Part shown: one piece after another, positions 10,864 to 30,063 of the stretch
Numbering within the stretch: position 1 is the stretch's first letter
Layout: each line of letters begins with the position of its first letter
Assembly: GCA_048887225.1 (NCBI GenBank)
Contig: JBHLJY010000026.1
Span: 1-30,063, forward strand
DNA from: Candidatus Hodarchaeota archaeon
Lineage (GTDB): Archaea > Asgardarchaeota > Lokiarchaeia > Sigyniarchaeales > SOKP01
Length of the DNA stretch: 30,063 nucleotides
Reading direction: 5' to 3'
The notes under the pieces: model-generated
Seen by the model: only the letters and a program-made list of their open reading frames with translations
Told to the model about the DNA's origin: nothing
Databases searched by the model: none
Program-made: the position numbers and the translations under genes

Positions 10864-11094
10864 TTAAATATAAAAGATTGAAATTATAATAGCGATTAAA
10901 ATAGGGATGAAGAAGAGTAAACAAAGAAAGCCACAAAAACTATTTCTCCAATTTATATAGCTATTTGGAGCTAAAATTACCTTACAATTAGGACATCGCT
11001 TTAAAGCAATGGTCTTAATCTCTATTCCACAATAATAACATAAAGATACTTTAACATCACTTTTTATTTTTTCATTTGATTCAATTTCAGACAT
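10864..11094 (-). CDS. Small zinc-ribbon membrane protein
   Basis: CYYC-x11-CPNC followed by a C-terminal hydrophobic helix. Confidence 0.55.
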   Translation of the reverse strand: MSEIESNEKIKSDVKVSLCYYCGIEIKTIALKRCPNCKVILAPNSYINWRNSFCGFLCLLFFIPILIAIIISIFYI

Positions 11095-11258
11095 TAAGAA
11101 TTCCTAAGACTTAATATTTTGATGAGATTACCTATATTTATATAATATTTAAATTGAATTAAATTTTAAAATCATTGCTTGAAATAAAAAAAAAGAAAAA
11201 CACCAGAGAAATAGACTCACTCAAATTTCTATTTAAATAAACAATATCCTCCAAAAAG

Positions 11259-21100: not shown

Positions 21101-21418
21101 TTACTCTTGAATTAAGATATTTTCTTCGGAGAATCCCATGTCGATTAAAAATTTTTTCATTTTAAAACGATGATCTCCTTGAAGCTCAATTTCATTCCCT
21201 CTTACAGTACCCCCAGAAGCGCATTTTTTCTTTGCTTTTGTTAAGATCTCCTTTAAATTAGCATCAAAATTTCCTTGGAATGTGATAACGGTCACCACAC
21301 GCCCCCATTTACGTTTATCGTTAGAGATAATTATTTGTTGTTCGTCTGCACTTAAACTATCACAGATACATAATTCTTTTGGAAAACTACATATTGGACA
21401 GATATCTTCGTCTTTGAT
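21101..21418 (-). CDS. Translation initiation factor aIF1 (SUI1), probable ATC start
   Basis: The frame extends upstream as IKDEDICPICSFPKELCICD...KRKWGRVVTVI. C-terminal KKKCASGGT..IELQGDH. In-frame TGA at 21428-21430. Confidence 0.9.
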   Translation of the reverse strand: MKDEDICPICSFPKELCICDSLSADEQQIIISNDKRKWGRVVTVITFQGNFDANLKEILTKAKKKCASGGTVRGNEIELQGDHRFKMKKFLIDMGFSEENILIQE

Positions 21419-21653
21419 TTTGTCTTTTCACAACCTTTCTTTTAATAGTTTTTAAATTTAGTGTTTAAATTTAAAACTCAATAATAAAAAATAATATATC
21501 AACCTCTTATAAAAACCTTTCACTCTTAGATCCAGAAAAAACCTATCTCTTTCAAAATAATTTAGTGGATTATTTAAAAATTTTAATGAATTATTATAAA
21601 AATAAAATCTTATTTTATATATTTAAGAAATTGATTAATTTTAAAATTTTCCG

Positions 21654-29914: not shown

Positions 29915-29986
29915 AGTTAAAAAATAGGAAGGAGAAAAAGAAGTTTAATAAGAATTCCCTAAAAAAACTTACATCTTTTTTAATAG

Positions 29987-30063
<77 letters not shown>

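Follow-up and report, generated by a model that had tools for sequence, protein, structure and literature searches.

Where does translation of aIF1 begin if no canonical start codon is available ahead of its conserved N-terminus? This question is raised by the SUI1 reading frame on the minus strand of the window, by which we mean the whole analysed stretch of 30,063 nt. The frame is open from 21427 to 21101 and is preceded by an in-frame TGA (21430–21428), located three codons 5' of an ATC. Behind the TGA it reads AAA GAC AAA ATC (21418–21416) AAA GAC GAA GAT ATC TGT and then enters the zinc knuckle CPICSFPKELCIC. Neither ATG nor GTG nor TTG occurs in frame between this TGA and the knuckle, and the frame first meets a canonical codon, a GTG, some 34 codons further downstream, within the SUI1 domain. 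The initial annotation had pointed out this gap and had proposed initiation at the ATC together with a feedback of aIF1 on its own synthesis. Each sequence detail that it listed for the gap was found on the minus strand.

The start region of aIF1

Identification of the product as aIF1 was supported by profile and structure matches. Pfam PF01253 (SUI1) was hit with E=1e-17 and 64.9 bits against a cut-off of 25.5, and NCBIfam NF002096/PRK00939, a model named after YciH by NCBI, with 115.9 bits (cut-off 98). The M. jannaschii aIF1 structure 4MO0 (102 aa) was aligned end to end (E=4e-26, query residues 5–103), residue 5 of the query falling on residue 3 of the chain, and PDB chains of eIF1 matched as well. 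Since the window's genome (98% complete) yields one SUI1 match, aIF1 is present as a single copy, which presumably represents the functional factor. The four cysteines of the zinc knuckle (CxxC...CxC) are invariant among 91 Asgard aIF1 sequences. Residue changes specific to the window's family are mostly conservative (E/D, K/R, L/A, C/S, plus one G-to-F); all are located outside the conserved RKWG loop, and none suggested a mechanism. A different form of SUI1 was met in Asgard families f13, f21, f18 and f8, where the best match has no N-terminal zinc knuckle (loci L186, L190, L199, L203, L208, L215 and L295–L297, e.g. ...KRKISSLAPLDFETQLAL...).

Conservation of the reading frame begins at the proposed ATC, and stop codons are found just 5' of it. 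As described in the initial annotation, an SD-like AGGttGTGA lies 9 nt ahead of the ATC at 21418, with GTGA (21431–21428) as its 3' end, and the same element contains both a TTG-TGA start-stop in the aIF1 frame (21433–21428) and an out-of-frame GTG (21431) opening a 14-codon ORF. This ORF is most probably incidental to the SD sequence. A second in-frame ATC (21403–21401) and an ATA (21394–21392, in CCA ATA TGT) were considered as alternative starts and rejected, both being at least 24 nt away from the SD and the ATA being placed inside the zinc knuckle. The coordinates of all features are collected in Table 1.

Table 1. Features of the aIF1 locus, further genes with near-cognate starts and the initiator tRNA. 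Plain positions refer to the window; G000 denotes the window's genome, with its contigs numbered C.
Feature	Position	Strand	Remark
aIF1/SUI1 CDS	21101..21418	-	ATC (proposed start) to TAA (21103-21101), 105 aa
Zinc-knuckle coding segment CPICSFPKELCIC	21362..21400	-	CPIC...CIC; true start must be upstream
Proposed near-cognate start codon ATC	21416..21418	-	Aligns with TTG/GTG/ATG of sister-family orthologs
Spacer between SD-like motif and start codon	21419..21427	-	9 nt, purine-rich
SD-like element AAAGGTTGTGA	21428..21438	-	Holds in-frame TGA (21430-21428), in-frame TTG (21433-21431), out-of-frame GTG (21431-21429)
Out-of-frame GTG ORF	21387..21431	-	14 codons; GTG without own SD
BRE/TATA-like element (GTGAAAGG TTTTTATAA)	21507..21523	-	Predicted promoter; leader would be roughly 65 nt
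ThiI, near-cognate start	5349-4711	-	Pfam domain directly after SD-positioned ATH
Other ATH-start genes	G000 C1:77147-78568, C4:91325-92101, C5:75679-76335, C3:134405-135136, C3:118797-119447, C4:216782-217753		Pfam domain directly after SD-positioned ATT/ATA
Other ATH-start genes (rest)	G000 C1:201604-203031, C4:137937-138467, C2:399914-401203, C2:401327-402637, C23:8479-10053		Same basis
Initiator tRNA	G000 C34, about 10990-11160	+	A1:U72, GGG/CCC anticodon stem, CAU, encoded CCA

The 16S rRNA gene is cut by the end of the contig; its last ~90 nt, including the anti-SD tail, are part of the window (about 29975–30063, minus strand), and the 3' end reads ...GGATCACCTCCT. Compared with AGGAGGTGA, the element AAAGGTTGTGA agrees at 7 of 9 positions and deviates at two internal ones. 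In the 2008 long ORFs of the window's genome GTGA is enriched 4–10 nt 5' of the first ATG with a mode at 6 nt, and GGAGG peaks at 9–10 nt. The GTGA spacing of 9 nt on aIF1 therefore lies in the tail of the GTGA distribution, within the observed range. The other verified genes starting at ATH (ATA, ATC or ATT) mostly carry GGTGA or GGTGT exactly 6 nt upstream. For the imperfect SD and the longer spacing on aIF1 we can offer no explanation other than that the site is weak on purpose.

We aligned 110 orthologous aIF1 loci, 30 from related genomes and 80 from GenBank MAGs, the latter mostly labelled Promethearchaeota and produced in many studies with many assemblers. The layout of GTGA, exactly 9 nt and ATT or ATC is present in 96 of the 110 loci (ATT in 91, ATC in 5), a count that overstates independence because members of a family are related. 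Of these 96 loci, 76 carry the full motif AAAGGTTGTGA unchanged, and the GTGA is invariant. No in-frame canonical start was found before the knuckle in any of the 79 readable GenBank loci. Nine codons without a canonical start are not improbable by chance; the recurrence of the same layout in 96 loci is beyond chance. The ortholog alignment that the initial annotation had proposed as a check thus returned orthologs without ATG or GTG starts, and the comparative data give strong support to initiation at ATC behind the SD-like element.

The aIF1 loci of five MAGs (L031, L035, L039, L042 and L062) are 85–98% identical to this Lokiarchaeia gene in spite of labels such as Thorarchaeota, Hermodarchaeota, Odinarchaeota, Hodarchaeota and even Nanopelagicaceae bacterium. 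These MAGs are probably mislabelled or contaminated bins.

Near-cognate starts on other genes and on aIF1 of other lineages

In the 2433 long ORFs of the genome we searched for in-frame ATH codons that have a strict SD and precede the first canonical start. The screen returned 50 candidates. In about a dozen of them a Pfam domain begins 1–12 residues after the ATH, and the first canonical codon of these genes follows only 13–110 codons downstream. Besides ThiI the genes encode an FAD oxidoreductase, a MinD-like ATPase, a small GTPase, HisA, V-ATPase subunit D, TFB, PGM/PMM, rubrerythrin and three phosphodiesterases. The domains placed directly after the ATH are NAD_binding_8, the P-loops of CbiA/MinD and Ras, PGM_PMM_I, a rubredoxin-like domain, ATP-synt_D, the TFIIB zinc ribbon, three Phosphodiest domains, His_biosynth (profile positions 1–227 of 228) and ThiI.

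The strongest case for these starts came from orthologs. HisA of the window's genome starts with ATA; in the 97% identical relative G002 the codon aligned to it is ATG, and in both the codon follows GTGA TAT GAA with the TGA in frame. PGM has ATA versus ATG in relatives of 84–85% identity, and the ATT of ThiI is restricted to the window's own small clade. AtpD carries ATA, ATC or ATT in 17 of 21 members of the family and ATG or GTG in all nine sister-family loci. The earlier proposal that further genes such as thiI start at ATH was thus borne out in about a dozen cases, by the position of the Pfam domain together with the start codons of orthologs. At one AtpD locus (L170, genome G011) an ACG stands at the aligned start behind GGTGA, which suggests that ACG may also act as a start in the window's family.

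Genome-wide, the enrichment of ATH codons positioned behind a strict SD is modest (ATA 4.7% and ATT 3.7% versus a background of 2.9%), and the case therefore rests on the individual verified genes. SD-positioned ATA and ATT are also enriched in the sister-family genome G032. A two-component fit to the distance between the upstream stop and the first canonical start assigned about 5% of the genes of the window's genome to a 'slow' component. As the same fit gave a similar figure of 6.8% for a sister-family genome, the 5% are not specific to ATH starts and represent a loose upper bound. We can only say that genes starting at ATH number in the dozens in the window's genome.

Standard gene callers, which accept only ATG, GTG and TTG, miss or truncate aIF1 and dozens of other proteins, including TFB, the V-ATPase D subunit, HisA and small GTPases. 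Such miscalled starts affect marker-gene sets, protein family alignments and the constructs used in structural work on Asgard proteins.

We also determined which initiator tRNA would read these codons. Running ARAGORN on the whole genome returned only 18 tRNAs and none with a CAT anticodon, a shortfall explained by introns interrupting the tRNA genes. A pattern search located the initiator tRNA gene, which contains an intron of about 47 nt after position 37 in the anticodon loop. Its anticodon is a normal CAU, so AUH would be read with a mismatch at the third position, the type of complex that aIF1 reportedly rejects.

We then compared how constantly ATH is retained at the aligned start within the window's family. 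The codon is found in 21 of 21 genomes for aIF1, 17 of 21 for AtpD, 6 of 18 for HisA, 3 of 14 for ThiI and 1 of 19 for PGM; these are counts from related genomes with four control genes, given without a statistical test. The starts of HisA, ThiI and PGM flip between ATG and ATH within the family, whereas aIF1 keeps ATH. aIF1 is the most constant gene in this comparison, and AtpD shows that long retention of ATH proves little by itself.

More informative was the survey of other Asgard families. Outside the order, 14 of 61 aIF1 loci with a zinc knuckle have no canonical start within reach. They belong to five families and combine an SD with ATA or CTG. In three genomes of f17 and in f11, AGGAGG is followed after 9 nt by ATA. 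Seven genomes of f9 show CAGGAG...CTG TCA GAC, with GTG at the same codon in four others, and f6 shows GGAAGGTG...CTG. In f16 one genome has ATA and two relatives have an ATG two codons upstream. Within the sister family f2, ATA stands in a single genome at the position where its relatives have TTG, GTG or ATG, and in many of the remaining Asgard lineages aIF1 carries GTG or TTG. A 400-kb portion of the f17 genome G067 shows no enrichment of ATH starts (5.9% versus a background of 4.9%), and 44% of the first ATGs there have a strict SD. The ATA on aIF1 is an exception in this genome, as AUU on infC is in E. coli. Non-canonical AtpD starts were found in none of the 27 resolved loci outside the window's family in the same phylum sample.

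AtpD of f17 showed a peculiarity of its own (L305, L308 and L310 from genomes G083, G067 and G057). Here the frame does not open until GCT AGA ATG GAA, immediately behind a TAA; this TAA is itself preceded by the perfect hairpin GGGTGY...GCACCC, and about 10 N-terminal codons of the orthologs (the ...PTR stretch before MELL) are missing. A bulge-helix-bulge-type mRNA intron or a shortened N-terminus may be the reason.

Proposed mechanism and competing explanations

That aIF1 starts at a near-cognate AUC or AUU is highly probable from the aligned loci. The aIF1 mRNA would be a leadered transcript on which the 30S subunit is positioned by the imperfect SD (AAAGGUUGUGA, core GUGA). Initiation would take place 9 nt downstream at AUC, or at AUU in most relatives, and would use the ordinary initiator tRNA with anticodon CAU, the third codon position being mismatched. 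This part, a leadered mRNA with an imperfect SD and AUC/AUU initiation by Met-tRNAi, is shown or closely implied by the alignments.

The second part concerns regulation. The aIF1 of S. solfataricus has been reported to discriminate against non-canonical start codons (Hasenohrl 2009, cited in PMC6237735). If aIF1 of the window's lineage likewise destabilises complexes on such codons, its own synthesis would be expected to fall as the factor accumulates. A rise of aIF1 would lower initiation on its own AUC or AUU and a fall would raise it, giving a set point for the amount of aIF1 and for stringency, and dozens of further genes with AUA, AUU or AUC starts in the window's family would be under its control as well. 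Taken together, a weak codon, an SD with mismatches and a long spacer would make the start site unusually sensitive. Autoregulation appears more plausible in view of the ATA, CTG and ATT starts recurring on aIF1 in several Asgard families, and less exclusive in view of the ATH starts on many other genes and their retention on AtpD. We put the odds of a feedback through the near-cognate start of aIF1 at about even and treat autoregulation as a good hypothesis, not as a finding. As the best joint explanation we favor SD-positioned AUC/AUU initiation combined with self-limiting feedback by aIF1, with a probability of roughly 0.55.

The main rival to the feedback accepts the near-cognate start and holds that the weak codon was kept only for low output in a lineage that tolerates AUA, AUU and AUC. 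AUU would either set a low constitutive output or represent a frozen accident, kept because a change would over-produce aIF1. Many verified ATH-start genes in the same genome, the drift of HisA, ThiI and PGM between ATG and ATH, the retention of ATH on AtpD without any link to fidelity and the enrichment of SD-positioned ATA and ATT in the sister-family genome would all be expected under such tolerance. It accounts less well for the fact that aIF1 alone among the genes examined has ATH in every genome of the family, and that aIF1 lacks a canonical start in five more Asgard families where AtpD shows no such case. One of these five families has no general ATH enrichment, and GTG or TTG is used on aIF1 in many remaining lineages. 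We consider a near-cognate start without feedback possible but less likely than one with it.

A further explanation places the start upstream, at the GTG (21431) or the TTG (21433), followed by a +1 frameshift on the A-run, by readthrough of the TGA or by reinitiation after the GTG ORF. In the window, GTG-AAA-A could let tRNA-Lys slip by +1, and the aIF1 of S. solfataricus was once annotated as frameshifted (PMC8211752). However, no slippery site is conserved, as illustrated by GTGATAAGAG, GTGAAACTAG and GTGAATGTAG, and the leader lacks a conserved RNA structure: RNAalifold predicted no pairs in 20 diverse sequences, and the leader of the window folded no better than its shuffles (z=-0.26). 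Two or three in-frame stops are found in the five codons upstream of the start in 45 of the 96 loci, e.g. GTGATAA and GTGATAATAG, so that up to three stops separate GTG and ATT. The in-frame TAA or TAG in the spacer of many relatives indicates that the spacer is untranslated in the aIF1 frame.

Nor is the GTG frame itself conserved. In L019 and L021 the spacer is 8 nt and brings the GTG into frame, which argues that the distance is kept and not the frame. The GTG is in frame in three members of the family (L018, L019 and L021), whose aIF1 could start there. In L016 GGAAGGAA takes the place of GTGA with similar spacing, and there is no GTG. Both GTG and TTG lack an SD at a usable distance. As to reinitiation, a 5-codon ORF starts at the out-of-frame GTG of the ATT-type relatives (L004–L017, L033–L110). 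Its second codon encodes K, S or N and always begins with AA or AG, and its TAA or TAG overlaps the ATT as ATTAA or ATTAG. This overlap may simply reflect constraints on the sequence or may hint at coupling, but in the ATC clade to which the window belongs the GTG ORF reads on past the start codon. The ortholog layout, the extra stops and the variable sequence after the GTG thus speak against a homopolymer error, readthrough of the TGA, frameshifting as in prfB and a functional uORF at the GTG, and point to a ribosome-binding role of the SD-like motif. We regard an upstream start with recoding or reinitiation as very unlikely.

A (near-)leaderless mRNA starting at or just before the ATC, with AAAGGTTGTGA as promoter-proximal DNA or the binding site of a regulator, appears slightly less probable still. 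An A/T-rich, TATA-like stretch about 18–30 nt upstream of the ATT in most loci would suit it, but 79 of 93 orthologous loci have a much better BRE/TATA-like element, A[AG]A[GA][GA]TTTTTWWAA, at 76–98 nt ahead of the start (most often 79 nt; 110 nt in one locus). The position of this element predicts a leader of about 45–65 nt that includes the SD. Furthermore, GTGA pairs with the 16S tail and lies at SD distance, and another SD-like motif is substituted in L016. We know of no precedent for a leaderless mRNA that initiates on a 5' AUU.

An error of sequencing or assembly, e.g. one extra A giving GTGAAAAGAC in place of GTGAAAGAC, whose deletion would bring the GTG into frame, can be dismissed as the cause, since the same frame relation recurs in the 96 loci from MAGs of many studies and assemblers, about 100 independent assemblies in all, most of the loci lacking an A-run after GTGA and many containing extra stops.

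We return to near-cognate initiation combined with feedback. A literature search found no report of a non-AUG start or of autoregulation of archaeal aIF1, in line with the earlier impression that neither had been described. If the feedback holds, control of a fidelity factor by a weak start would be present in all three domains, including the closest archaeal relatives of eukaryotes, and the origin of eIF1 autoregulation would become testable. A broader and more speculative version, which we judge less likely than not, is an archaeal stringency thermostat: a third independently evolved case, after IF3 and eIF1, in which aIF1 is encoded with AUU, AUC, AUA or CUG, stringency is set permissively and a regulon of AUH-start genes tracks the level of aIF1. 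HisA, AtpD, TFB, ThiI, PGM and GTPases would then be among the genes relying on AUH starts.

Relation to known systems

Two of the systems compared share only part of the arrangement. A 'rare ATT start codon' has been proposed for the tubulin AtubA of Kariarchaeaceae, a Heimdall-group lineage (PMC13394414). As on aIF1, an ATT that follows a plausible ribosome-binding site gives back a conserved N-terminus which gene callers cut off, but AtubA is a structural gene covered by one remark, with neither a link to a fidelity factor nor a survey. The programmed +1 frameshift of prfB (RF2) resembles the aIF1 locus in that the gene of a translation factor has a stop in frame close to its 5' end, with an SD-like element beside it. 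In contrast to prfB, aIF1 has no conserved slippery site or frame relation, and several stops follow each other in relatives. With its varying post-GTG sequences, its spacer of 8 or 9 nt, up to three in-frame stops and a relative (L016) without any GTG, a prfB-type frameshift was rejected for aIF1.

The infC gene of bacteria, encoding IF3, starts with AUU and is subject to translational autorepression, findings reportedly made by Butler and colleagues in 1987 and by Sacerdot and colleagues in 1996. AUU starts in E. coli are nearly unique to infC. As with infC, the gene of a factor rejecting non-canonical starts begins with AUU, AUC or AUA behind an SD, and the codon is kept across a large clade. 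IF3 and aIF1 are unrelated proteins, however; the infC feedback was demonstrated experimentally whereas that of aIF1 is a proposal, and unlike in E. coli, dozens of other genes use AUH in the window's lineage.

Eukaryotic eIF1 (SUI1) has its AUG in a poor context and is negatively autoregulated (Ivanov et al. 2010, cited in PMC6237735). aIF1 is its ortholog, and the proposed logic is the same, a suboptimal start on the mRNA of the stringency factor itself. The means differ: eIF1 retains its AUG and has a weakened Kozak context that acts during scanning, whereas on aIF1 the codon itself is near-cognate and is placed by an SD. The closest system to aIF1 is bacterial infC in logic and eIF1 in ancestry.
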